Assembly: GCA_964639185.1 (NCBI GenBank)
Contig: CAZXCN010000005.1
Location: 1 to 60,943, forward strand
Source: an uncultured Candidatus Saccharibacteria bacterium
Lineage (GTDB): Bacteria; Patescibacteriota; Minisyncoccia; Phycocordibacterales; UBA9973
DNA: 60,943 nt
Direction of reading: 5' to 3'
Shown: in pieces, positions 46,111 to 60,943 of the stretch
Numbering within the stretch: position 1 is the first letter of the stretch
Layout: every line of letters begins with the position of its first letter
Translations under genes and position numbers: made by a program
The notes under the pieces: model-generated
The model's input: the letters and a program-made list of their open reading frames with translations, nothing else
Database searches by the model: none
What the model was told of the DNA's origin: nothing

Positions 46111-48024
46111 ATGGTAATAGCTACAGAAACTCAAATTGTACCTTTTGATTATCAGCTTGAGTGTCTTGAGATACTTGAACGTACTGAAAAAATTGGTAGA
46201 AAAAAAGCCCTTGTAATTCTTGCAAGTGGTTTAGGAAAAACAATACTATCTGCGCTTTTTGTAAAGAGAAGATATTTGGATTTTACTAAAGTCCGATGCC
46301 TCTTTTTATGTCACCAGAATGATGTGCTCCAACAAGCTCAGCTTGAATACGAGCAAATCTTTCAAGGCGCCGTAAATTACGGCTTCTTTCATGGTGAAGA
46401 CAAGAGTGGTCTGGGTGCTAATATCTTATTTGCATCACTACAGACAATGAGGGATCATCTGGAAAAGTTTGATCCAAATGAATTTGATGTAATCATTGTT
46501 GATGAGACACATCATATCTACGCGGAAACATATGTACCCGTGGTGCATTATTTCCAACCTGAATTCTTGTTGGGAATCACAGCAACCCCTGATCGGATGG
46601 ATGAATTAGACATAAGAGATATCTACGGAGAGGAAGTATATAATCTTCCTCTTATAGAAGCCCTTATTAGAGGATTATTAACCCCAATTGATTATCGGTT
46701 AATGACAGATGAGATCAGTTTAAGTAAAGATGTCGAAACACCGTTAGGAAAATTAAGCATAGGTTCTTTGAACCGAACAATGTTTATCCCTAAGCGCGAC
46801 GATGAGATCACCCGGATCATTCAAGAGAAAATGTACGAGGTGAGCAATCCTCGGGTTATGATTTTTTGCTCTTCAATTGAGCATTGTGAGCAGATAGCAG
46901 GACTTCTTCCTAATGCTGTACCAATTCATTCGCGAATGAATCCAAATGATCGCAAGGTGCGTTTGGAGTTATTCAAACAAGGTATGTTTAATATGGCTGT
47001 TACAGTTGATATGTTTAACGAAGCTTTAAATATTCCGGAGGCTAATGTAATCGTTTTTCTGCGGTCTACTCAATCCATGACAGTGTATCTTCAGCAATTA
47101 GGGCGAGGGTTACGACCACAAGAAAACAAACCCAAGGTTCTCATTCTTGATTTTGTGGGTAATTGTGAACGTATATCTTTTATCTACAATCTATGGGAAA
47201 AAATTACCCAAGAAAGAGGAAAACGATTGCGTAAAGGACGTAGATGGCTCATCGAACCTTTTCTCTTAAATGTTGACGCTATTGATTTCAAGGAGAAAAT
47301 TTTTCCTTTAATTGATTACATCAATAATGTAAAGTTGGGATATTACTCCACTTGGCAAGAGGCCTCAGTGGTAGCAATGGGACTTGGAATAAAAGGTGTA
47401 ATGGATTATAAGATGAATTACAGGAAAGATCCTCGGCTCCCCGGCAATCCTCATGAGTACTACGAAGATTTCCCTGGATTTCCAATATTTCTTGAAAGTA
47501 AAAATCCAAAATATGCTAAGAAATATTCTACATGGCAAGAAGCTTCAGAAAAAGCAGTAAACCTAGAATTCGTAGACAAAAGAAGTTATCGGAAAGATTG
47601 TAAACTTGACTCAAGACTTCCAAAAAATCCAGATAGGTACTATAAAGATTTTCCAGGGTGGTTATTATTTTTGCAGACAGATACTTACAAAACTTGTAAT
47701 GAAGCTGCTATTGCTGCCCGAAAGTTAGGGATTAGATCATGTATCCAGTACAGCAGGGAAAAGTTATACAAACAAGATCCTAAATTACCTGCTGCCCCCG
47801 ATCAAATCTACACTGACTTTCCTGGCTGGGAAAAATTTCTTGGAACCGATGAAAGAGATTTTTACAAAACATGGCAGGAAGCATCAATTGCTGCAATTCA
47901 ATTAGGAATTAAAAATGGTAGGGAATATTCAAAGACTTATGGTCAAGACCCTTTTCTTCCTTTTCATCCAAGTATTCAGTATAAAGACTTTCCAGGATGG
48001 TCAAAATTTCTTGGAAAAAAATAA
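46111..48024 (+). CDS. SF2 (ResIII/DEAH-type) helicase paralog with four C-terminal ~55-aa repeats
   Basis: LASGLGKT, IVDETHH, ITATPDR, QQLGRGLR. Four WQEAS...FPGW..FLG repeats. Confidence 0.8.
   Translation: MVIATETQIVPFDYQLECLEILERTEKIGRKKALVILASGLGKTILSALFVKRRYLDFTKVRCLFLCHQNDVLQQAQLEYEQIFQGAVNYGFFHGEDKSGLGANILFASLQTMRDHLEKFDPNEFDVIIVDETHHIYAETYVPVVHYFQPEFLLGITATPDRMDELDIRDIYGEEVYNLPLIEALIRGLLTPIDYRLMTDEISLSKDVETPLGKLSIGSLNRTMFIPKRDDEITRIIQEKMYEVSNPRVMIFCSSIEHCEQIAGLLPNAVPIHSRMNPNDRKVRLELFKQGMFNMAVTVDMFNEALNIPEANVIVFLRSTQSMTVYLQQLGRGLRPQENKPKVLILDFVGNCERISFIYNLWEKITQERGKRLRKGRRWLIEPFLLNVDAIDFKEKIFPLIDYINNVKLGYYSTWQEASVVAMGLGIKGVMDYKMNYRKDPRLPGNPHEYYEDFPGFPIFLESKNPKYAKKYSTWQEASEKAVNLEFVDKRSYRKDCKLDSRLPKNPDRYYKDFPGWLLFLQTDTYKTCNEAAIAARKLGIRSCIQYSREKLYKQDPKLPAAPDQIYTDFPGWEKFLGTDERDFYKTWQEASIAAIQLGIKNGREYSKTYGQDPFLPFHPSIQYKDFPGWSKFLGKK
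47341..48021 (+). repeat. four tandem protein-level repeats
   Basis: YSTWQEAS...FPGFPIFL, YSTWQEAS...FPGWLLFL, YKTCNEAA...FPGWEKFLG, YKTWQEAS...FPGWSKFLG. Confidence 0.8.
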
Positions 48025-48426: not shown

Positions 48427-48843
48427 ATGGACAAGACTAATGAATTTTCTTTTTTACTTAAACCATCAACTCACGGTGTTGGTGTTTTTGCGGCGCATGA
48501 TATTAAAATAAATACACCAATGCGTTTATTTGGAGATGCTAATCCTCGAAGAATTTTAAAAAAAGATGATATACCTGAAGAATTTAGAAATTTTTGCGCT
48601 GATAGGGGTGAGACAATGATTTGTCCTCCTGATTTCGGATATATGCCACATGGATGGTTTTTAAATCATTCGCAAAATTCAAACACTGAAACAAGGGGCG
48701 GGTATAATGAAAAAGATGGGTATAGTTTTTTTGCAAAAAAGGATATAAAAGCTGGTGAAGAAATTACTATAGATTACAACAACCTAGAGGAGACAGAAAA
48801 TTCAAAAGAGGATTATTATAAAAGTGACATTAATATTATATGA
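48427..48843 (+). CDS. SET-domain protein (putative protein-lysine methyltransferase)
   Basis: GVGVFAAHDI, FLNHSQNSN (NHS motif), GEEITIDYN. 138 aa. Confidence 0.7.
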   Translation: MDKTNEFSFLLKPSTHGVGVFAAHDIKINTPMRLFGDANPRRILKKDDIPEEFRNFCADRGETMICPPDFGYMPHGWFLNHSQNSNTETRGGYNEKDGYSFFAKKDIKAGEEITIDYNNLEETENSKEDYYKSDINII

Positions 48844-49103: not shown

Positions 49104-49193
49104 TGGCGGAGCCGGCGAGATTCGAACTCGCGAGGGCTTTTACACCCTGCCTCTTTAGCAAAGAGGTACGTTAGACCACTCTGACACGGCTCC
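49104..49193 (-). tRNA. tRNA-Ser (GCU), type II, CCA encoded
   Basis: Minus strand GGAGCCG...CCTCT-TTGCTAA-AGAGG, long variable arm, GCGAG-TTCGAAT-CTCGC, CGGCTCC-G-CCA. Confidence 0.85.
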
Positions 49194-49303
49194 AGATTGG
49201 TTATGAATGCATATTAGCACATAAAAAACATAAATAAAATAAGGCTTTTATAAATCTAAAAATGTAGTATAATGCCTGTCATAAGGAATAAAGTTAATAA
49301 TAC

Positions 49304-49393
49304 GGAGGATTGGATGAGTGGTTTAAATCAACGGTTTACTAAACCGTCGAACCTTAATCGGTTCCGTGAGTTCGAATCTCACATCCTCCGCCA
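49304..49393 (+). tRNA. tRNA-Ser-like type II tRNA with ACU anticodon (A34), CCA encoded
   Basis: GGAGGAT/ATCCTCC acceptor, G73. Anticodon stem ACGGT/ACCGT with loop TTACTAA. Variable arm GAACC...GGTTC. T arm GTGAG-TTCGAAT-CTCAC. Confidence 0.75.
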
Positions 49394-52024: not shown

Positions 52025-53353
52025 CTATTTTTTACTTTTTTCAAGGCTAATATTTTTACTCGCTAAATAGACTTTACTCTTCAGACACCCAAGTAATTCT
52101 CGCTTCTCAATATCATTTCCTTCTTTCAATATATACTTTGCATATCCTCGTATATCAATATCAGGGATACTAATTTTTTCTTTAGTTCCTACCAGAAACT
52201 TTTGCATTTTAGAAAAGCGTTCAACATCTTCTTTTATCTTTTCTTTGATATAGATCTCATTGAGATCTATACTTTCTATGAGTAATTCAAATTGCTTCAA
52301 TAATTCTTTTTCTTCTATAGCACCACACTTACAATCTGGATCTCTGGCTCTTGTGCATCTATAGTAAACATAACGATGCACATTACCATTCTTTTGTTTC
52401 TTAAATTTCTCGTCAGCGGTGATACCCGATCCACATAGTCCACAAGTCATCATCTTAGTAAAAGCAAATTCTTTATTCTCTACTCGTAAGACATTACTTT
52501 TAATCTGCTCTTGAACTAGGTCAAAAAGTTCTTTTGTAATAAGTGGCTCGTGTTTACCTGTGTACCAATTACCTGACTTTTTAGGATACTCAAAAATTCC
52601 ATAATAGAATGGATTATCTAGTATTTTATAAATATTCCCTAAACTAAGATGTTTTTTGCCATATGCTGTTCTAAAGTTAAGATCAAATCTTAACCAGTTG
52701 TATACTTTTCTACCAGTCCAATGTTCGTGAGCAACTTTTTCAAACATCTTTTTAACTGTTGGAGCGCGCTCTGGGTCAACCAATGTTTCGCATTTTCTAT
52801 CCATTCGTTTTTCTTTTAAATATCCAGTTGGTGCAGGTGCAGGCCATAGTCCCATTTCGACTCTTGTTCGTAATCCTCGTTTTACGTTTACACTTTTGTT
52901 ATCATTCTCGAGCTTTGCTTGAGAACACAGAATCATGAGTAGAAACTTTTCATTTGGTGAGTTCTTAAAGTGTTGTCCGTATGTACGAATCTCCATGAGT
53001 AACTTTTGATCCATAAGGTCAACGATACTTCCAAGATCACCGGCATTACGAGAAAGACGATCAGGTGCCCATGTGAGTATTCCATTGAATCTACCTCGCC
53101 TGATATCTTCCAAAATTTCCTTGTATACGGGGCGTTGTCCTGATTCTTTTGCACTATGAGACTCACGCCTAATTTCTACAATTTCCAAACCATCTCGTTC
53201 GGCAAGATCAAGCATTTCTTTGACTTGTGAATCAATAGACAGGACTTGTTTTTCTTCTGATTCAGTTGATTTACGAGCATAAAGTACATATTTGATTTTT
53301 TGTAGTGGGGCAATGATTTCTTTGCCAATACGAGCTGATGTGTATATCTCCAT
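52025..53353 (-). CDS. large serine recombinase
   Basis: Resolvase catalytic domain YARKSTESEEKQVLSIDSQ, recombinase domain, and zinc-ribbon CGLCGS...YYRC. Confidence 0.9.
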   Translation of the reverse strand: MEIYTSARIGKEIIAPLQKIKYVLYARKSTESEEKQVLSIDSQVKEMLDLAERDGLEIVEIRRESHSAKESGQRPVYKEILEDIRRGRFNGILTWAPDRLSRNAGDLGSIVDLMDQKLLMEIRTYGQHFKNSPNEKFLLMILCSQAKLENDNKSVNVKRGLRTRVEMGLWPAPAPTGYLKEKRMDRKCETLVDPERAPTVKKMFEKVAHEHWTGRKVYNWLRFDLNFRTAYGKKHLSLGNIYKILDNPFYYGIFEYPKKSGNWYTGKHEPLITKELFDLVQEQIKSNVLRVENKEFAFTKMMTCGLCGSGITADEKFKKQKNGNVHRYVYYRCTRARDPDCKCGAIEEKELLKQFELLIESIDLNEIYIKEKIKEDVERFSKMQKFLVGTKEKISIPDIDIRGYAKYILKEGNDIEKRELLGCLKSKVYLASKNISLEKSKK

Positions 53354-53554
53354 ATATAATTAATGACAGAGAAAGAGCTTTTTGCTAAGCTATGCAGAGC
53401 TAAAAATACATTGCATACTCGCGTTGACAGCCTTAGCAAAACCATTGATTTGCGATACAATTTAGTAGAATAATTTCACAAAAAATGATATTATTTCTTT
53501 ACAAGTTAATATGTGTTGACCTAACCCCTTTGGTTTCCCAAAGGATATGGTTGA

Positions 53555-53703
53555 AAAACTCGCTACAAGATAAAAACCCCGTCGTCAGGGTTACTTGTAG
53601 CGAGTCACATCGGGAAACTGGTGTGGGTGATCTTCGGGTCATCGGCTTGGCGGCGGGATTTTTGTCTACCTGCCAAGTTTATTATTAAAACTCGCTACAA
53701 GAT
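53555..53703. promoter_or_regulatory. 17-nt direct repeats plus one inverted copy, bracketing a GC-richer structured segment
   Basis: AAAACTCGCTACAAGAT at 53555-71 and 53687-703. CTTGTAGCGAGT at 53594-605. Internal hairpins. Confidence 0.5.
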
Positions 53704-54437: not shown

Positions 54438-55919
54438 TTAATCTACAGTTACATAATCTGAATAATAAAGGGTGTCGTTACCGCAAGAGATTATCCATGT
54501 TGAATCCCTCGAATGTTTTTCTAGTGTTGAATTTATGAGAAGCGAGAATGCATCCGCAAGGTCATCATGTTTTTCAACTCCAAAACCAACAAGCTCTCGT
54601 ATCAGATCTTCACATCCATGTCTTGGAAACTTAATGATTCCAGACTTGATAGACGTTGAAGTTAAAGACAAGCGAGTTCTTTTATCTCCTTTAGGCTTTA
54701 CTGATTCCGCTTTTACGCCATTTAATTCAAGCATCTGTGGTAGTGCTTCTTGATACGATACGCTTTCGACAAACAATGTATCTGTGTATCTCGGCATTTG
54801 TGTTTCTTTAAAGTTTTTCATTAAATCAACTTGTGCAGGAAAATTAAGTTTTTGAGCAATTGGATTTGGAAGAATATATATTCTCATTTTTTCTCTACGA
54901 CCATAAATATGAGCAGAGACAATCGTTGTAAAATCTGCTGAATCTTTTGTTGAAATAGCAAGATCAACACCAGCATATGTACCACGATATGCTTTATGAC
55001 TTTTCCCTGGTAACTCATCGTAGAATTGAATCCATTCAGAATAAATCACTTGATCATCACTTGGGATGATACGGAGTAAGTACTCTCGTTGCCATGATAT
55101 CTCACTTGCAACATTTAATTTCTCATCTTCAATGTCTTTCATAGTCGGGTACTTTCCAAGCCATAAACATACATCATCTTGGTCAAGCAATGGGTACCGA
55201 CTGAAAGTTCCTTTTGACCTATTGTTTTCAATATCGTCCTTGATTCGCATGATAAGAGAGTCTTCGTGCAAAAGGTTCCCAACGATGATTAGGCGTGTCC
55301 TACGGTCTCCCGCAGGTGCAACCTCTCCATATAGCCATTGGTACGTCTTATCTCGTCCCTCGCGTGTTTTGGTGGACTGTACGTCCTCTACGTCGTCGCA
55401 GATAATAAGGTCTGGTCTATGCTCATTATGTCTCGCTCCACGGATACTTTGTTCAGTTGAAGCAACGGTGATACGAGCACCATGCTTTTTAAAGACTAAA
55501 GAAAATGAACCCCACTCATCGCTCTCTTCTTGAAATGGTCCAAGATCTTTTTTAAGAAGATCATTATCTTCAAGCTCACTTTTAATGTTCATCATATGTT
55601 GTTTGGCTTGTATTCTTGTCTGACAAAAAATCATACAAAATTTCTTTTGCTGTTTTCCAAGAATCGCCCAGATTGGATACGCAGTCGTCACCATAGTAGA
55701 CTTACCTGATCCACGAAAGGCAACTATGTATAAATTTTCAACAGCACTTTTTTCGAGATTATGAATAATCTCTTTTTGAAAGTCTGCAGTTTCGTATTTT
55801 ACATAATGGGCATAGTAAAAGTGAAAGAAGTACAAAAAGCTATCTTTGGTGATAGAAGTTCGTACTAACTTATCTTTCATCATTCGATTTACCAAACTAT
55901 TTTCAATTATTTTGTTCAT
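54438..55919 (-). CDS. phage terminase large subunit
   Basis: Walker A AFRGSGKST, Walker B LIICDDVED, C-terminal nuclease-like half, 493 aa. Confidence 0.8.
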   Translation of the reverse strand: MNKIIENSLVNRMMKDKLVRTSITKDSFLYFFHFYYAHYVKYETADFQKEIIHNLEKSAVENLYIVAFRGSGKSTMVTTAYPIWAILGKQQKKFCMIFCQTRIQAKQHMMNIKSELEDNDLLKKDLGPFQEESDEWGSFSLVFKKHGARITVASTEQSIRGARHNEHRPDLIICDDVEDVQSTKTREGRDKTYQWLYGEVAPAGDRRTRLIIVGNLLHEDSLIMRIKDDIENNRSKGTFSRYPLLDQDDVCLWLGKYPTMKDIEDEKLNVASEISWQREYLLRIIPSDDQVIYSEWIQFYDELPGKSHKAYRGTYAGVDLAISTKDSADFTTIVSAHIYGRREKMRIYILPNPIAQKLNFPAQVDLMKNFKETQMPRYTDTLFVESVSYQEALPQMLELNGVKAESVKPKGDKRTRLSLTSTSIKSGIIKFPRHGCEDLIRELVGFGVEKHDDLADAFSLLINSTLEKHSRDSTWIISCGNDTLYYSDYVTVD

Positions 55920-55924
55920 ATATT

Positions 55925-56338
55925 TTATTTTTTGTTAATTCTTTTAATAGATTTCGATTTTGTAATCGAAGCAAGCTTAAGAGCGTTACGGACAATTTTT
56001 GCTTGTGACGGAGTGAGTGCTTCACTTTCTTCTTTTGTTGTGATTTCAAGTTTGTTCTTGTAGTTGTCGTTTCGGTGACGGAGCCAGAAACTAATGGCAG
56101 GATAATTCTTTTCTTTTATGAGTGTTAGCAACTGGCTTTCACTCATGTCGTTCACCAACGCTACACCGTCTTTGAGTGCCTGATCCATTTTCTTACAGAA
56201 TGATTGATCATCTTTTCGCCAGCGATAGACACTATTACGAGAGACACCTGTTTTTTCACAAGCGACTTGAATAATTGGTACCTTGGTCAGTTCTTCAAAA
56301 AACTGATCTTGTAATTTATTCTTTTTCATAATGTTCAA
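55925..56338 (-). CDS. HTH protein, putative terminase small subunit
   Basis: HTH VACEKTGVSRNSVYRWRK. Position immediately upstream of the large terminase. Confidence 0.5.
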   Translation of the reverse strand: MNIMKKNKLQDQFFEELTKVPIIQVACEKTGVSRNSVYRWRKDDQSFCKKMDQALKDGVALVNDMSESQLLTLIKEKNYPAISFWLRHRNDNYKNKLEITTKEESEALTPSQAKIVRNALKLASITKSKSIKRINKK

Positions 56339-57599
56339 TAGTTGCTTTATTATCAGTCATGGCTTCGTACCGCTTGATAATCAAATCGCAAAAGCGAGGC
56401 TCGAGTTCACAGCCATAAACTTTTCGACCAAGTTGTTCTCCTGCAAGGAGAGTACTACCTGACCCGAGGAAACTATCCAGAATAATTTCACCTGGTTTAG
56501 TGCATCGTTTGATAGCTTTCTCATGAAGCGTGATCGGCTTTGAAGTGGCATGTTGGTAATCTTTTGCAGATAGACGCTTTGCAGTCCAAATTTCTAAAAA
56601 GTCATCGACTTGCTCAATAAGATCATTACCTGTACCAAATTCTTTGTTCATCACTTCATTGAGATCCATCATTGATTCTGATAAATATGGTCTGCCACGA
56701 ATTCCATACACAGCTGGTTCGTATGCTTTATTGCAATAAATTTTAGGTACAGGATTTTGAGAATTCTTCAACCACAAACACACTCGTTTATTACTAATAC
56801 CAAATGAGCGATATACATCTTGAATCAAACCAATATAAATTTGGTCACAATAATAGAAGACATGAGTACTAGGATTCGATACAGCAAGTGCACAGCCGAG
56901 ACTATCACGAATGAAAGTTTTGTATTCTTCAAAAGTACGAGAGTCTTTGACGCTTCCTCCATAATTTTGATTTCCGCCTATGCCACCGCCATAATCAATT
57001 TCAAGATTGTAGACAGGATCACTGTAAATCATGGAGGCGCGCTCGTTGCCAAGTAATCTTGTGAGAGTTTCTTGTTTAGTTGAGTCGCCACAAATAACTC
57101 TGTGCTTGCCGAGTCTGATAATGTCACCGAGTTTAGTTACTGGATCAACAATCTTTGCTAATTCTTTTTCTACATCAAATGAATCTTCTTTAATTTCTTT
57201 ATCTTTATCCCAGAATTTTGCAAGCTCCATACTATCGAACCCTGCGAAGGAGAGGGTCTCCATATCAAATGACTCAAGCAAGTCATAATCCCAATCACCG
57301 CCGAGCTTGTTTGAGCCAATCAAGTATTCTTTCGATTCTTTTTCTGTGAGGTTACGATTAGGTACACGAATATCAATAAGTTCATTTCCTCGACCAAGTA
57401 ATTGGAGGGCACGAATGCGTTGATGTCCCGCAAGAATAGCCCCATTATAATCCACGGCTGGGATTTCAACGAGGTTAAACTTTTTGAGACTTCTAGTAAG
57501 GTCTGACATCTGTTTGTCAGATATTTTACGAGGGTTGATCTCTTGGGGAATTAGATCATCTACTCGCTTTTGGACAGTCGTCCATGATAGCTTTTTCAT
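56316..57599 (-). CDS. ParB-like nuclease domain fused to an N6A/N4C DNA methyltransferase
   Basis: ParB motif ILAGHQRIRAL, MTase motif IV SDPVYN, motif I DSFLGSGSTLLAGEQLGRK. Confidence 0.8.
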   Translation of the reverse strand: MKKLSWTTVQKRVDDLIPQEINPRKISDKQMSDLTRSLKKFNLVEIPAVDYNGAILAGHQRIRALQLLGRGNELIDIRVPNRNLTEKESKEYLIGSNKLGGDWDYDLLESFDMETLSFAGFDSMELAKFWDKDKEIKEDSFDVEKELAKIVDPVTKLGDIIRLGKHRVICGDSTKQETLTRLLGNERASMIYSDPVYNLEIDYGGGIGGNQNYGGSVKDSRTFEEYKTFIRDSLGCALAVSNPSTHVFYYCDQIYIGLIQDVYRSFGISNKRVCLWLKNSQNPVPKIYCNKAYEPAVYGIRGRPYLSESMMDLNEVMNKEFGTGNDLIEQVDDFLEIWTAKRLSAKDYQHATSKPITLHEKAIKRCTKPGEIILDSFLGSGSTLLAGEQLGRKVYGCELEPRFCDLIIKRYEAMTDNKATIEHYEKE

Positions 57600-57777: not shown

Positions 57778-58182
57778 TTACTTATCTATTTCTTTTGCAA
57801 TACCTCGAGTAAATCTTTTACCATTCTTACTTTTAATAAATTCGACCGTGTCTTTTCCTGCAAAAACAGGAATGCCTTCTTTGGGTAGTTCAATAAGGAT
57901 TTTATATCCTTTTGCTTCTTCAGCTTGAACCATTTTTACAAAGTCAGGATCCGCCTTTAAAAGATTAAGGGTGAACTCTCGATGGTCAGAGGTAGAAAAC
58001 TTTTCAATAGTTGAATATATTCTGTCAGGTTTATTTTTCTCAAATGCTTTTTGTATTTTCTTACCGACTGAGAGAGTGGGGATCCTATTTGCAGTGTGAA
58101 GAGCGATATCCGTTATCTGGATAATTTTATACTTTACACCATCTTTTTCTACAAAAGGTTTTAATTCGACTTTGTAATCCAT
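57778..58182 (-). CDS. hypothetical protein
   Basis: ORF only. Confidence 0.4.
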   Translation of the reverse strand: MDYKVELKPFVEKDGVKYKIIQITDIALHTANRIPTLSVGKKIQKAFEKNKPDRIYSTIEKFSTSDHREFTLNLLKADPDFVKMVQAEEAKGYKILIELPKEGIPVFAGKDTVEFIKSKNGKRFTRGIAKEIDK

Positions 58183-58240
58183 TTAGAAAGTATACCAGGT
58201 ACTTGCTTTTTTGTATAGGATAATTTATACTATTTATACC

Positions 58241-58858
58241 ATGACCAATAACCTTAGTGACAAAGACAAAAAAGCTTTTGCCCTTATCCGCAACAAGATT
58301 ATCCATTATGGTAAAAGCCCTACCCTCCGTGAAATTAACGAAGTCACAGGAGGTAAATCTCCACGATCCGCAAGCTTAGTGATCGACCGACTTGTAGAAT
58401 CTGGTCTTATAAAAAAGAGCGGGAGAAATCTCATACTTGCAAACACATACAGTGAAAGTTCTGTAAGTACGATAGATATACCTCTCGTCGGTTCCGTTGC
58501 ATGCGGAACGCCGATCTTCGCAGAAGAAAATATACAAACCTACATTCCCATATCAACGCGAATGGCACAAAAGGGTTCAAAATATTTCCTCCTTCGAGCG
58601 TCAGGTGATTCCATGGACGAAGCAGGAATCAACAGCGGTGATCTGCTTCTTATAAGACAACAGGATTCAGCAGAAAAAGGAGACAAAGTTGTTGCACTCA
58701 TCAATGATGAAGCGACAGTAAAGGTTTTTGAAAAGACTCGTGATGCTGTCATCCTCCGACCAAAGTCGAAGAACCAAAATCACAAGCCTATTATATTAAC
58801 AGATAATTGCATGATCCAAGGAGTAGTTGTTGCGGTGCTTCCAGCGGATCTATACTAA
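58241..58858 (+). CDS. lexA: LexA-like repressor (wHTH + S24 self-cleaving peptidase)
   Basis: GKSPTLREINEVTG...LVESGLIKK wHTH, VACG cleavage-site-like motif, SGDSM (Ser), ATVKVF (Lys). ATG at 58241 preferred. Confidence 0.8.
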   Translation: MTNNLSDKDKKAFALIRNKIIHYGKSPTLREINEVTGGKSPRSASLVIDRLVESGLIKKSGRNLILANTYSESSVSTIDIPLVGSVACGTPIFAEENIQTYIPISTRMAQKGSKYFLLRASGDSMDEAGINSGDLLLIRQQDSAEKGDKVVALINDEATVKVFEKTRDAVILRPKSKNQNHKPIILTDNCMIQGVVVAVLPADLY

Positions 58859-58864
58859 AAACAT

Positions 58865-59236
58865 ATGAAAAGAATATTTATTGCATTCGCTATTGAAGAT
58901 AAGACATTTCGTGACTTTCTTGTAGGTCAAGCAAAAAATGATAAGTCTCCGTTTGAGTTTGTCGATATGTCAGTTAAAACACCATGGGAAACTGACTGGG
59001 AATCTAAGTGTCGTACAAAAATTAAAGGATGTGACGGTATGATTGCACTTATAAGTAAAAATACACCCTCAGCAACTGGAGAGCTTTTTGAAATCAAAAC
59101 AGCGGGTGAAGAAAAAGTGCCTGTCATGCTTATGTACACAGGAACAGATCGTCCCACTCTTCCATCCTCATTGAGCGGTCGTCTTGTTAATGTTTGGAGT
59201 TGGTTGAATATTAAATCATTCATCAGCAAACTTTAA
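58865..59236 (+). CDS. stand-alone TIR-like protein (DUF1863 / ThsB-like)
   Basis: RIFIAFAIED N-terminal strand, CDGMIALISKNT, and LFEIKTA with a candidate catalytic Glu. 123 aa. Confidence 0.55.
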   Translation: MKRIFIAFAIEDKTFRDFLVGQAKNDKSPFEFVDMSVKTPWETDWESKCRTKIKGCDGMIALISKNTPSATGELFEIKTAGEEKVPVMLMYTGTDRPTLPSSLSGRLVNVWSWLNIKSFISKL

Positions 59237-59237
59237 A

Positions 59238-60179
59238 ATGAGAAAAGCATTAATTGTCGGCATAAATAATTACCCCACAGCACCTCTTAAGGGGTGTATA
59301 AATGACGCGTCAGCATTTGCGAATACAATAGAAAAGAATGGTGATGGCTCACCGAATTTTTCAGTGAGACTAGAAACAGACGTTGCCACAAAATCAGTAT
59401 TCAAAACAATGGTCAGAGAACTTTTTGAAGGAGATAGTGATATATCCTTATTATATTTTTCTGGTCACGGTTTCTTTAATGATTTAGGTGGATATATCGT
59501 TACTCCAGACCACCAACAAAATGACGAAGGAGTTTCTATGGACGAGATCCTAGTACTGGCTAACAAATCCAAAGCAAAGGATAAAATTATTATCTTGGAT
59601 TGTTGCCATTCTGGTGCTTTTGGATCTCCTGCTGTATCAGGAGGTCTTTCAGCACAAATCATTGAGGGCGTGGTAGTTTTGACAGCTAGCAGACCTGACG
59701 AGAGTGCCATTGAAGTTAATGGTCATGGAATTTTCACAAATCTATTGATAGATGCTTTACAGGGAGGAGCGGCTGATCTTAGAGGTCATATAACTCCAGG
59801 TAGTGTATATGCATACATTGACCAAGCATTGGGACCATGGGATCAAAGACCTGTGTTTAAAACAAATGTAACGAGGTTCACTTCTTTACGAACTATACAG
59901 CCCCAAGTGCCGATGGAGACACTCAGAAAACTAACAGAATATTTTCCAATGGCGGAACAAGAATATGCACTAGATCCTACTTACGAGTTTGATAACAAAG
60001 ATATTGCTATACCCGAGAAAGTTGCCATTTTGAAAGATCTACAAAAATTCGTAGGTATCGGCTTAGTAGTCCCAGTTGGTGAAGAACATATGTATTACGC
60101 CGCGCAGAATTCAAAATCTTGCAAGCTTACAGCTCTCGGATATCATTATTGGAGGCTTGTAAAAGACGGCAAATTGTAA
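59238..60179 (+). CDS. caspase-family (peptidase C14) protein with unassigned C-terminal domain
   Basis: ALIVGINNY, YFSGHG (His), IILDCCHSG (Cys), TASRPDESA. Confidence 0.8.
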   Translation: MRKALIVGINNYPTAPLKGCINDASAFANTIEKNGDGSPNFSVRLETDVATKSVFKTMVRELFEGDSDISLLYFSGHGFFNDLGGYIVTPDHQQNDEGVSMDEILVLANKSKAKDKIIILDCCHSGAFGSPAVSGGLSAQIIEGVVVLTASRPDESAIEVNGHGIFTNLLIDALQGGAADLRGHITPGSVYAYIDQALGPWDQRPVFKTNVTRFTSLRTIQPQVPMETLRKLTEYFPMAEQEYALDPTYEFDNKDIAIPEKVAILKDLQKFVGIGLVVPVGEEHMYYAAQNSKSCKLTALGYHYWRLVKDGKL

Positions 60180-60188
60180 TTATTATTT

Positions 60189-60854
60189 ATGGATTTTGAG
60201 CGAGCCATCAAAATTCTAAATGACACTCTTTCTGAAAAGAACCCCTCAAAAATTAGCTCCTCATGGATTCTTCAAAATGCCCCGCGTGTATACCGATACA
60301 TCAATAAAAATATCAGAACCGAAAATGATGATATCGACTGGGATAAGGTAACTTCTTCTCTCGACAGATCGTTCTGCAAGCGGTGGTTACGGTATCACCA
60401 AAAGTCCATCAAGATCTACGAGAAACAGTCCGAGGTAGATATCATTCTTTCAAAATACAAAGATCGTCTGTATACATTTATTGCCTACGCCAACGAAGAC
60501 GACAGAAAGATGCAAAGCCGAATGCTTATCAGTCTGGTGCGCTTAAGCCAGAAAGGAAACGTCTGTGCCGAGCAGGAGGTAGTAAAATGGATTACCTATA
60601 TAACCGACGACTGGATTGATCGCTATCCTCAAATGTACCGTTGGAGAGGATATGCAGACGAGGTAGACGGTCATATAAAGGGCTGTGTTAGGCGATACCG
60701 CTATACAGGATCATTTCTTGGATATCTGTTCAAAACGCTTGAATATTCAGTCCGTGGCAAGCCACCGTTGGTGTCCTTAAATGACAATATATTTGGAGAC
60801 AAGACACGGGAAGAATACGCTAAAGTGGAAGAAGACTGGCAGATCTACAAATAA
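60189..60854 (+). CDS. hypothetical protein, last gene of the LexA-TIR-caspase operon
   Basis: ORF only. Weak, unverified resemblance of aa ~125-190 to sigma-70 region 2. Confidence 0.4.
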   Translation: MDFERAIKILNDTLSEKNPSKISSSWILQNAPRVYRYINKNIRTENDDIDWDKVTSSLDRSFCKRWLRYHQKSIKIYEKQSEVDIILSKYKDRLYTFIAYANEDDRKMQSRMLISLVRLSQKGNVCAEQEVVKWITYITDDWIDRYPQMYRWRGYADEVDGHIKGCVRRYRYTGSFLGYLFKTLEYSVRGKPPLVSLNDNIFGDKTREEYAKVEEDWQIYK

Positions 60855-60943
60855 TTACAGATGGCTGTAACTTTATATACCCTATACCGTGTAACTTTTG
60901 TCACTTTTTGATGTGCTCGAGACGCGTCGTTATGGTATTATAA

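Follow-up and report, generated by a model that had tools for sequence, protein, structure and literature searches.

Type IV Thoeris is a two-gene defence system that consists of a TIR protein together with a caspase-like protease (Rousset et al., bioRxiv 10.1101/2024.10.24.620036; Science 387:510, 2025). The studied homologs use N7-cyclic ADP-ribose (N7-cADPR) as the signal and have been shown to provide anti-phage defence; the published mutants are PsTIR E79Q and PsCaspase C129A, and the C-terminal domain of the effector has been described as being of unknown function (10.1101/2024.10.24.620036). According to the authors' detection rule, a match to the caspase hidden Markov model (HMM) is combined with a match to TIR_2 or ThsB at an independent E-value (i-E) of ≤0.1, with no more than one gene between the two (10.1101/2024.10.24.620036). 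The current analysis deals with a four-gene locus, ORF1 to ORF4, at the right end of a 60,943-nt contig (CAZXCN010000005.1) from an uncultured “Candidatus Saccharibacteria” bacterium. This whole stretch, referred to here as the window, represents 61 kb of a low-GC bacterial chromosome with tmRNA and tRNA genes. Relatives of every gene of the locus come from assemblies of Patescibacteria, also known as the candidate phyla radiation (CPR). A first-pass annotation had proposed that the four genes, coding for a LexA-like repressor, a minimal TIR protein, a caspase-like protease, and an unassigned protein, form a single novel defence system. The comparisons described below place ORF2 and ORF3 in type IV Thoeris and indicate that the locus probably makes up the right-hand half of a small, satellite-like integrative island, whose slot holds this pair and whose backbone includes ORF1 and ORF4.

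The four same-strand ORFs are separated by 6, 1, and 9 nt and are divergent from a minus-strand block that encodes a 134-aa protein, a ParB-like/N6_N4 methyltransferase, a TerS-like protein, TerL, and a serine recombinase (Table 1). In these respects the first-pass description of a tightly packed quartet facing away from a phage-like block was accurate, and all the motifs quoted in it are found in the translations: VACG, SGDSM, and TVKVF in ORF1; RIFIAFAIED, CDGMIALISKNT, and LFEIKTA in ORF2; and YFSGHG and ILDCCHSG in ORF3. The start of ORF1 is placed at ATG 58241, where all its homologs open with MT[ND]NLSDKDKK (the mechanical ORF list had TTG 58211). A scan of the four-gene stretch detected no internal terminator and no convincing internal promoter.

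ORF2 is one of a family of 123- to 125-aa proteins that form over 1,000 clusters at 90% identity. When used alone, its sequence matches the ThsB_TIR and TIR_2 profiles at sub-threshold E-values of 0.013 to 0.014, and a single-sequence search of the PDB returned nothing useful, so that a family profile was required. This profile retrieved the Bacillus cereus TIR protein (PDB 8fz9; E-value, 2e-4), EcThsB2 (8v6t), and ThsB (9uv0). In the resulting alignment, Glu76 of ORF2, which is invariant among both 32 and 53 aligned family members, falls on the catalytic Glu column of these three structures. The AlphaFold2 (AF2) model of ORF2 (predicted local distance difference test [pLDDT] score of 82; predicted template modelling [pTM] score of 0.77) had 8fz9 (E-value, 1.6e-6; template modelling [TM] score, 0.74), MyD88, SARM1, and EcThsB2 among its top Foldseek matches and also matched SPARTA TIR domains. 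ORF2 is therefore regarded, as it was in the first-pass annotation, as a small stand-alone TIR protein with a conserved Glu76 as the predicted catalytic residue. Its very small size, initially viewed as an undescribed feature, is common to the TIR proteins of Escherichia coli and Pseudomonas aeruginosa, which are likewise 123 to 124 aa long.

In some of the related loci (designated here by L numbers), an ORF2-type TIR that is 75 to 95% identical is directly followed by the octameric membrane protein 8xMP (PF24838), or by a second ThsB and 8xMP, with no caspase gene (L004:8001-8905, L001:8001-9326, L009, and L014). Because of this adjacency, the same type of TIR may also feed a membrane effector; nothing relevant on 8xMP turned up in the searchable literature.

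ORF3 matches Pfam Peptidase_C14 with an E-value of 3.7e-20 and scores 104.5 bits, below the 140-bit cutoff, on the NCBIfam model “caspase, EACC1-associated type.” Its His77 and Cys123 are invariant across the family alignment, in line with the His/Cys dyad recognized from the start. The family comprises at least 8,000 clusters, always full length, and the C-terminal ∼110 residues are conserved to the same extent as the protease domain across phyla. Searches of the PDB with the family profile retrieved only metacaspase and paracaspase structures, which cover the protease domain alone, and the single sequence produced only weak metacaspase matches. The additional C-terminal domain, which the first-pass annotation could not assign, is indeed present and conserved but not unusual, as the same domain is described in the published type IV Thoeris.

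In a tblastn search, ORF3 produced full-length matches (residues 1 to 311 of 313) with 47 to 49% identity on plasmids of E. coli and P. aeruginosa (47% in the latter). Both plasmid records contain a 123- to 124-aa “TIR domain-containing protein” encoded 9 nt upstream of a “caspase family protein” of 317 to 330 aa. ORF2 is 45 to 46% identical to those plasmid TIRs over the whole length, and its Glu76 corresponds to Glu79 of the P. aeruginosa protein, a number identical to that of the published PsTIR mutant; Cys123 of ORF3 corresponds to the Cys residue of the DSCHSG motif (C130) in the P. aeruginosa ortholog. The E-values of ORF2 against TIR_2 and ThsB fall inside the i-E limit of the published detection rule, and the homology to the Pseudomonas and E. 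coli pairs makes it very likely that the caspase part of that rule would recognize ORF3 as well. A survey of 80 species-representative caspase loci from Bacteroidota, Bacillota, Pseudomonadota, Planctomycetota, Methanosarcina, and others showed the TIR gene directly adjoining the caspase gene in 66 of them, typically with a gap of 1 nt or a 4-nt overlap, and several of the TIR-less loci are cut by contig ends. Outside Patescibacteria the bare TIR-caspase pair, as in E. coli and P. aeruginosa, is the rule. Full-length orthology, the aligned Glu76 and Cys123, and the adjacency of the TIR gene in those 66 loci all support assigning ORF2 and ORF3, by sequence, to type IV Thoeris as a new member of a known system. 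The pair shares with the described systems the co-oriented short TIR and caspase-like genes (here 1 nt apart), the catalytic residues, the C-terminal domain, and a wide but patchy spread among phyla; unlike them, it sits on an island of Patescibacteria, flanked by a LexA-type repressor gene on one side and by an unrelated gene of the backbone on the other.

The same survey bears on the proposal that all four genes represent a single new defence system, with the LexA-like protein as a dedicated sensor or regulator and ORF4 as an accessory protein or a second effector. The tight packing of the genes fits this proposal, and so does the recurrence of the full quartet in L010, where ORF4 is 59% identical. 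However, an S24 repressor is present in 8 of the 80 caspase loci and an ORF4 homolog in just 1, the bare pairs of E. coli and P. aeruginosa are orthologs of the type that has been validated by experiment, and ORF1 and ORF4 also flank unrelated cargo such as the cyclic oligonucleotide-based antiphage signaling system (CBASS) and type II Thoeris, with ORF4 additionally found where there is neither TIR nor caspase. A single four-gene system is thus very unlikely, and both the LexA coupling and the presence of the fourth gene are explained by a mobile island in which a swappable defence slot lies between the repressor and ORF4.

By homology to the published system, ORF2 would sense phage and produce a signal derived from ADP-ribose (N7-cADPR in those homologs that have been studied), which would bind the C-terminal domain of ORF3 and trigger indiscriminate proteolysis, aborting the infection. 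Activation of a caspase-like effector by a TIR-made signal, as initially suggested, still appears to be the best reading of ORF2 and ORF3. The pair might instead serve the life cycle of the island, through killing or arrest of the host upon induction or through interference with a helper phage. Phage satellites carry interference functions, and the pair is located in the repressor operon of an element that has TerL and TerS but no capsid genes. Still, such a role is extremely unlikely, given that the pair is found on plasmids and chromosomes without the island in many phyla, that its close homologs defend against phage, and that the slot holds interchangeable classical defence systems.

The slot behind the repressor is a swappable defence hotspot. 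In most loci, the cargo starts within ∼12 nt of the repressor stop codon or overlaps it. Such cargo includes CBASS CD-NTase cyclases (PADLOC E-values down to 1e-118) and Cap15-type effectors with two transmembrane segments (Cap15_CD_rec, 1.8e-27), type II Thoeris (ThsB, 7e-75; Macro ThsA, 1e-44), the PADLOC candidate systems PDC-M48 and PDC-M36, DUF2188 sets, and type IV Thoeris, as well as other ThsB proteins or TIR sets, some of them with 8xMP. An “empty” slot, with ORF1 followed directly by ORF4, had been expected; in the loci examined, cargo was always present between or after them. This mosaicism resembles that of the reported multi-TIR, multi-effector Thoeris islands, in which DUF2188 is a putative effector (10.64898/2025.12.03.692087). 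Several slot proteins without a Pfam or PADLOC family are candidate new effectors or accessories: a 303-aa protein encoded upstream of a CBASS cyclase (L125:5622-6533), a 217-aa protein after the caspase in L007 and L013 (L007:9356-10009), and a protein of 226 aa encoded behind a 190-aa ThsB (L104:3332-4012).

ORF4 is an island backbone protein rather than a component of Thoeris. Its homologs, which form ∼415 clusters, often represent the last gene of the cargo slot. In L017, a Nomurabacteria chromosome, and in L019, ORF4 has no TIR or caspase nearby and is directly divergent from the methyltransferase/terminase block; the homolog in L020 lies elsewhere in the genome, also with no TIR or caspase. 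In L104, L111, L118, and L134 to L136, ORF4 is found behind unrelated cargo, exemplified by L104, where a 95%-identical ORF4 comes after an S24 repressor, DUF2188, the 190-aa ThsB, and the 226-aa family-less protein. Other homologs follow CBASS, PDC-M48, other Thoeris types, or a system with a metallo-β-lactamase (MBL) fold protein.

As in the first-pass annotation, ORF4 could not be assigned to any family in Pfam, NCBIfam, PADLOC, or PHROG. A single-sequence search of the PDB gave nothing useful, profile-versus-PDB and Pfam scans of 30 family members gave nothing consistent, and a structural search with the AF2 model (all-alpha; pLDDT, 75) found no significant fold neighbour. An HMMER search across all 1.8 billion representatives yielded 306 relatives of ORF4, many of which consist of 3 to 12 tandem N-terminal modules of ∼70 aa followed by one C-terminal domain, reaching up to 1,110 aa (P0362, P0367, and P0449). 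One relative contains a homing-endonuclease-associated repeat (PF18780). A similarity to sigma factor region 2 was considered because of a KGNxxAxxEL...YRYTGSFxGYLF stretch and partial Foldseek matches to SigC and to region 2 of sigma-E; with an hhalign probability of 0.2 against E. coli RpoE (an approximate sequence) and nothing in PHROG, it lacks statistical support and was set aside as a weak lead. ORF4 might be a DNA-binding protein or a transcription regulator of the island, a suggestion made with low confidence.

ORF1 scores 143 bits on the NCBIfam LexA model TIGR00498 (cutoff, 110.95), an equivalog-level match, and contains the Pfam domains Peptidase_S24 (4.5e-29) and LexA_DNA_bind (1.4e-5). 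The Ser residue of GDSM and the Lys residue of TVKVF, read directly from the sequence, form its S24 dyad, which agrees with the initial description of a LexA-type winged helix-turn-helix (wHTH) protein with an S24 domain. The cleavage position is Cys-Gly (VAC/GTP), as in UmuD; it is kept in L001, L010, and L011. All 33 close relatives of ORF1 (71 to 96% identity, in species-representative genomes from many Patescibacterial lineages) are island-linked and share the same leftward block of a small gene, the ParB-like methyltransferase, TerS, TerL, and, in most cases, a large serine recombinase. This invariable association marks ORF1 as part of the backbone of a mobile island and not as a Thoeris-specific regulator.

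Alternatively, ORF1 could be a genuine chromosomal LexA, with the island merely adjoining it or with the island copy having become the sole LexA of the cell. The equivalog-level score, the wHTH-S24 architecture with its Ser/Lys dyad and cleavable-type site, and the possibility that small Patescibacterial genomes hold a single copy are all compatible with this view. It is nonetheless unlikely: the distant LexA homologs from other phyla (35 to 51% identity) show no island context, in contrast to the close relatives; similar backbones carry an alternative S24 repressor that is only 35% identical; related islands differ in their right-hand flanks; and within the 61 kb, the candidate operator occurs solely at the gene's own promoter.

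ORF1 lies behind a 58-bp divergent promoter region. The ATG codon of ORF1 is located 9 nt past the −10 box of the rightward promoter, so that the mRNA would be near-leaderless. A candidate operator palindrome overlaps this −10 box, and a leftward promoter-like site (58217..58189, minus strand) overlaps its left half-site. Both the promoter and the half-sites are kept in L001, L010, and L011, while the spacer between the half-sites varies. A perfect GTATA-N8-TATAC sequence is found once in the window and, across 107 loci, solely at LexA-type promoters. Together with the Ser/Lys dyad and the Cys-Gly site, the operator supports a role of ORF1 as an autorepressor of both divergent units that would be relieved by RecA-stimulated cleavage. 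As in the initial proposal of RecA-sensitive control, it is plausible, from these sequence features, that ORF1 binds the palindrome over its own −10 box, where it would also overlap the −35 element of the leftward promoter, and keeps the operon low and autoregulated until its self-cleavage in the SOS response raises expression. No recA or uvr genes were identified in the 61-kb window. In its gene order, the locus has the features of an element immunity repressor with defence cargo: the S24 gene travels with the element, is divergent from the packaging genes, and is followed by defence genes in what is probably the same transcription unit.

In the proposed layout of the island, the serine recombinase, LOOT RNA, TerL, TerS, ParB-like methyltransferase, and small gene would make up the arm on one strand, and the divergent promoter would drive ORF1, the cargo slot with its changing content, ORF4, and a conserved DNA element at the terminus. 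The serine recombinase co-occurs with the backbone in most of the related loci. The LOOT RNA appears to be part of the backbone because it occupies the same position in a related island (L007:2191-2308); nothing relevant on LOOT turned up in the searchable literature. A conserved 224-aa ORF lies next to the LOOT RNA, and its called GTG start at 53621 overlaps the RNA.

The right-hand flanks of related islands differ, with trxB/ftsZ in L001, EamA in L104, and Cu-oxidase/RNR in L007. In L007 and L013, TerL and the methyltransferase are ∼80% identical to those of the window, yet the S24 repressor is only 35% identical, which implies swapping of the immunity region. In the IMG/VR contigs (L169 to L188), the ParB-methyltransferase, TerS, TerL, 0 to 3 genes, and the large serine recombinase recur as a unit, and no portal or capsid genes are present in these cassette contigs; only distant TerLs (24 to 40% identity) are followed by large ORFs (680 to 770 aa, judged by size only) where a portal gene would be expected. 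Because the terminase and recombinase cassette recurs without portal or capsid genes, the element is read as a satellite-like integrative island of Patescibacteria, which suggests dependence on a helper phage. No helper phage was identified, and no description of this island was found in the searchable literature.

Several points weigh against the island and Thoeris assignments. The Pfam score of ORF2 alone, 16.3 bits, is below the gathering score of 21.2, and the plasmid orthologs from E. coli and P. aeruginosa used for comparison do not correspond exactly to those assayed in the published work. As an equivalog-level LexA by sequence, ORF1 could double as the LexA of the cell. With a tolerance of one mismatch, the window shows no enrichment of the palindrome (6 occurrences versus 3.0 expected). 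Co-transcription of ORF1 to ORF4 is inferred from the 1- to 9-nt gaps and the absence of terminators, and mobility is deduced from the differing flanks and the IMG/VR matches. Finally, the right junction of the island and any att site lie past the end of the window.

Table 1. Features of the island in the window (positions 1 to 60,943 of the contig)
Feature	Position	Strand	Description	Basis
Large serine recombinase	52025..53353	-	Predicted island integrase at the left end of the island; host ABC-transporter genes to the left	Pfam Resolvase/Recombinase/Zn_ribbon_recom; PHROG integrase 1e-63
LOOT RNA (Rfam RF03000)	53518..53643	+	Beside the recombinase	86.5 bits versus gathering score of 46.4
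TerL	54438..55919	-	Terminase large subunit; 78-83% identical in related islands	PHROG phrog_38 2.7e-74
TerS-like protein	55925..56338	-	HTH protein	PHROG terminase small subunit 2e-8; weak Pfam HTH/Sf6_terminase
ParB-like methyltransferase	56316..57599	-	ParB-like N-terminal domain and N6/N4 DNA methyltransferase	Pfam N6_N4_Mtase 2.4e-26; PHROG methyltransferase 4e-80, ParB-like 7e-23
134-aa backbone protein	57778..58182	-	First gene of the leftward unit; no family; homologs or an alternative 210-aa protein at the same position in related islands	
Rightward promoter	58203..58240	+	TTGCTT 58203-58208, 17-nt spacer, TATACT 58226-58231	Read from sequence
Candidate operator palindrome	58213-58230		GTATA-N8-TATAC, overlaps the -10 box of the operon; extra TATAC at 58235-58239	Read from sequence
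ORF1	58241-58858	+	LexA-type wHTH and S24 self-cleaving repressor (predicted); island backbone, immunity-type	Profiles, motifs, context of relatives
ORF2	58865-59236	+	123 aa; short TIR, the type IV Thoeris ThsB; predicted to synthesize the signal, Glu76	Profile, AF2, and Foldseek
ORF3	59238-60179	+	313 aa; predicted caspase-like protease effector (His77/Cys123) with ∼110-aa C-terminal domain	Pfam C14, orthologs
ORF4	60189-60854	+	221 aa; all-alpha island backbone protein: N-terminal ∼70-aa repeat-type module and conserved C-terminal helical domain	AF2, contexts
Terminal non-coding element	60855..60943	+	89 nt after ORF4: hairpin TTACAG-ATGG-CTGTAA 60855-60870, tandem repeat GTGTAACTTTTGTCACTTTT 60889-60908; contig ends inside	

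The non-coding element that follows ORF4 has 75 to 92% identical copies directly after the last cargo gene in ∼40 related loci, with every cargo type examined (such as L001:9341-9414, L104:4691-4765, L108:7037-7101, and L125:8063-8105). The element combines the hairpin TTACAG-N4-CTGTAA with the tandem repeat GTGTMACTTTTGTCACTTTT, which is invariant. Past the terminal element, other loci have a box resembling TATAAT, a conserved stretch of ∼90 nt, and an intrinsic terminator; the ∼90-nt stretch has no Rfam family and no RNAalifold consensus fold. The element is unique in the window, and no second copy of the terminal repeat that would make up an att pair was found at the left end of the island, where there is only an 8-nt chance repeat. 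The terminal element could be an end or att arm of the island, a site of cassette exchange, or a promoter of a small RNA.

Two further observations concern the surroundings of the island. In a closely related genome, a diversity-generating retroelement (an RVT_1 reverse transcriptase and bAvd) is located just past the terminase side (L001:415-1815; L003). In the window, upstream of the bordering ABC-transporter genes, there are genes for a SNF2/ResIII helicase with three C-terminal “integrase repeat” (INT_rpt) units and a SET-domain protein, as well as two divergent tRNA-Ser genes, one of which has the anticodon ACT according to ARAGORN; these features lie at 46111-48024, 48427-48843, and 49104-49393.

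The cI-rexA-rexB genes of phage lambda form an operon that combines a prophage immunity repressor with defence morons. As in lambda, the S24 repressor of the island is divergent from packaging/lytic genes, is directly followed by abortive-infection or exclusion genes, and belongs to an immunity region that is swapped. Unlike lambda, in which the repressor has a CI-type HTH, ORF1 has a LexA-type wHTH as its DNA-binding domain; its candidate operator overlaps the −10 box of its own promoter, so that simple autorepression is predicted instead of PRM-style activation; and the carrier, despite its terminase genes, is devoid of structural genes. Phage-inducible chromosomal islands (PICI) and P4-like hotspots are phage satellites or integrative islands that carry defence genes. 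They share with the element described here a small size, an integrase, packaging-related genes, a repressor, and a variable defence hotspot. The Patescibacterial island differs from them in having both TerL and TerS, the ParB-like methyltransferase, the LOOT RNA, a large serine recombinase, and its host. CapW/BrxR, CapH+CapP, and CapK+CapS are DNA-damage-responsive regulators of immune operons, and for CapK+CapS a position upstream of type IV Thoeris has been reported 12 times (PMC13373217). Similarly to ORF1, these repressors are encoded directly upstream of CBASS, Thoeris, and other operons, with de-repression predicted upon DNA damage or in the presence of single-stranded DNA (ssDNA). In contrast to them, ORF1 is a one-protein LexA/S24 regulator, presumably RecA-dependent, that belongs to the backbone of a mobile element; no sequence kinship with them is expected.

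No new immune mechanism emerges from the locus, whose TIR-caspase core is type IV Thoeris. The carrier island is its more interesting part, albeit a variation on known themes, namely, defence hotspots on mobile elements and immune operons controlled by DNA damage. A broader picture, which is possible but rather doubtful as a whole, is that of a widespread and apparently undescribed Patescibacterial satellite-like island that puts interchangeable abortive-infection cassettes under a RecA-cleavable LexA-type repressor. A single SOS or induction signal would then boost both the defence and the packaging genes, ORF4 would be a new regulator of the island, and the terminal element would serve as a site of cassette exchange or attachment.

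To our knowledge, few defence systems have been reported in Patescibacteria/CPR, and the current analysis places type IV Thoeris, CBASS, and type II Thoeris in this group. It is also indicative of a compact island of wide occurrence, in which abortive-infection systems plug into a slot behind a LexA-type repressor. If the proposed regulation is true, it would add a fourth, RecA-linked route to the DNA-damage control exerted by CapW, CapH/P, and CapK/S. The operator, the terminal repeat, and ORF4 would offer handles on the exchange of defence cassettes in organisms that have so far been genetically intractable.

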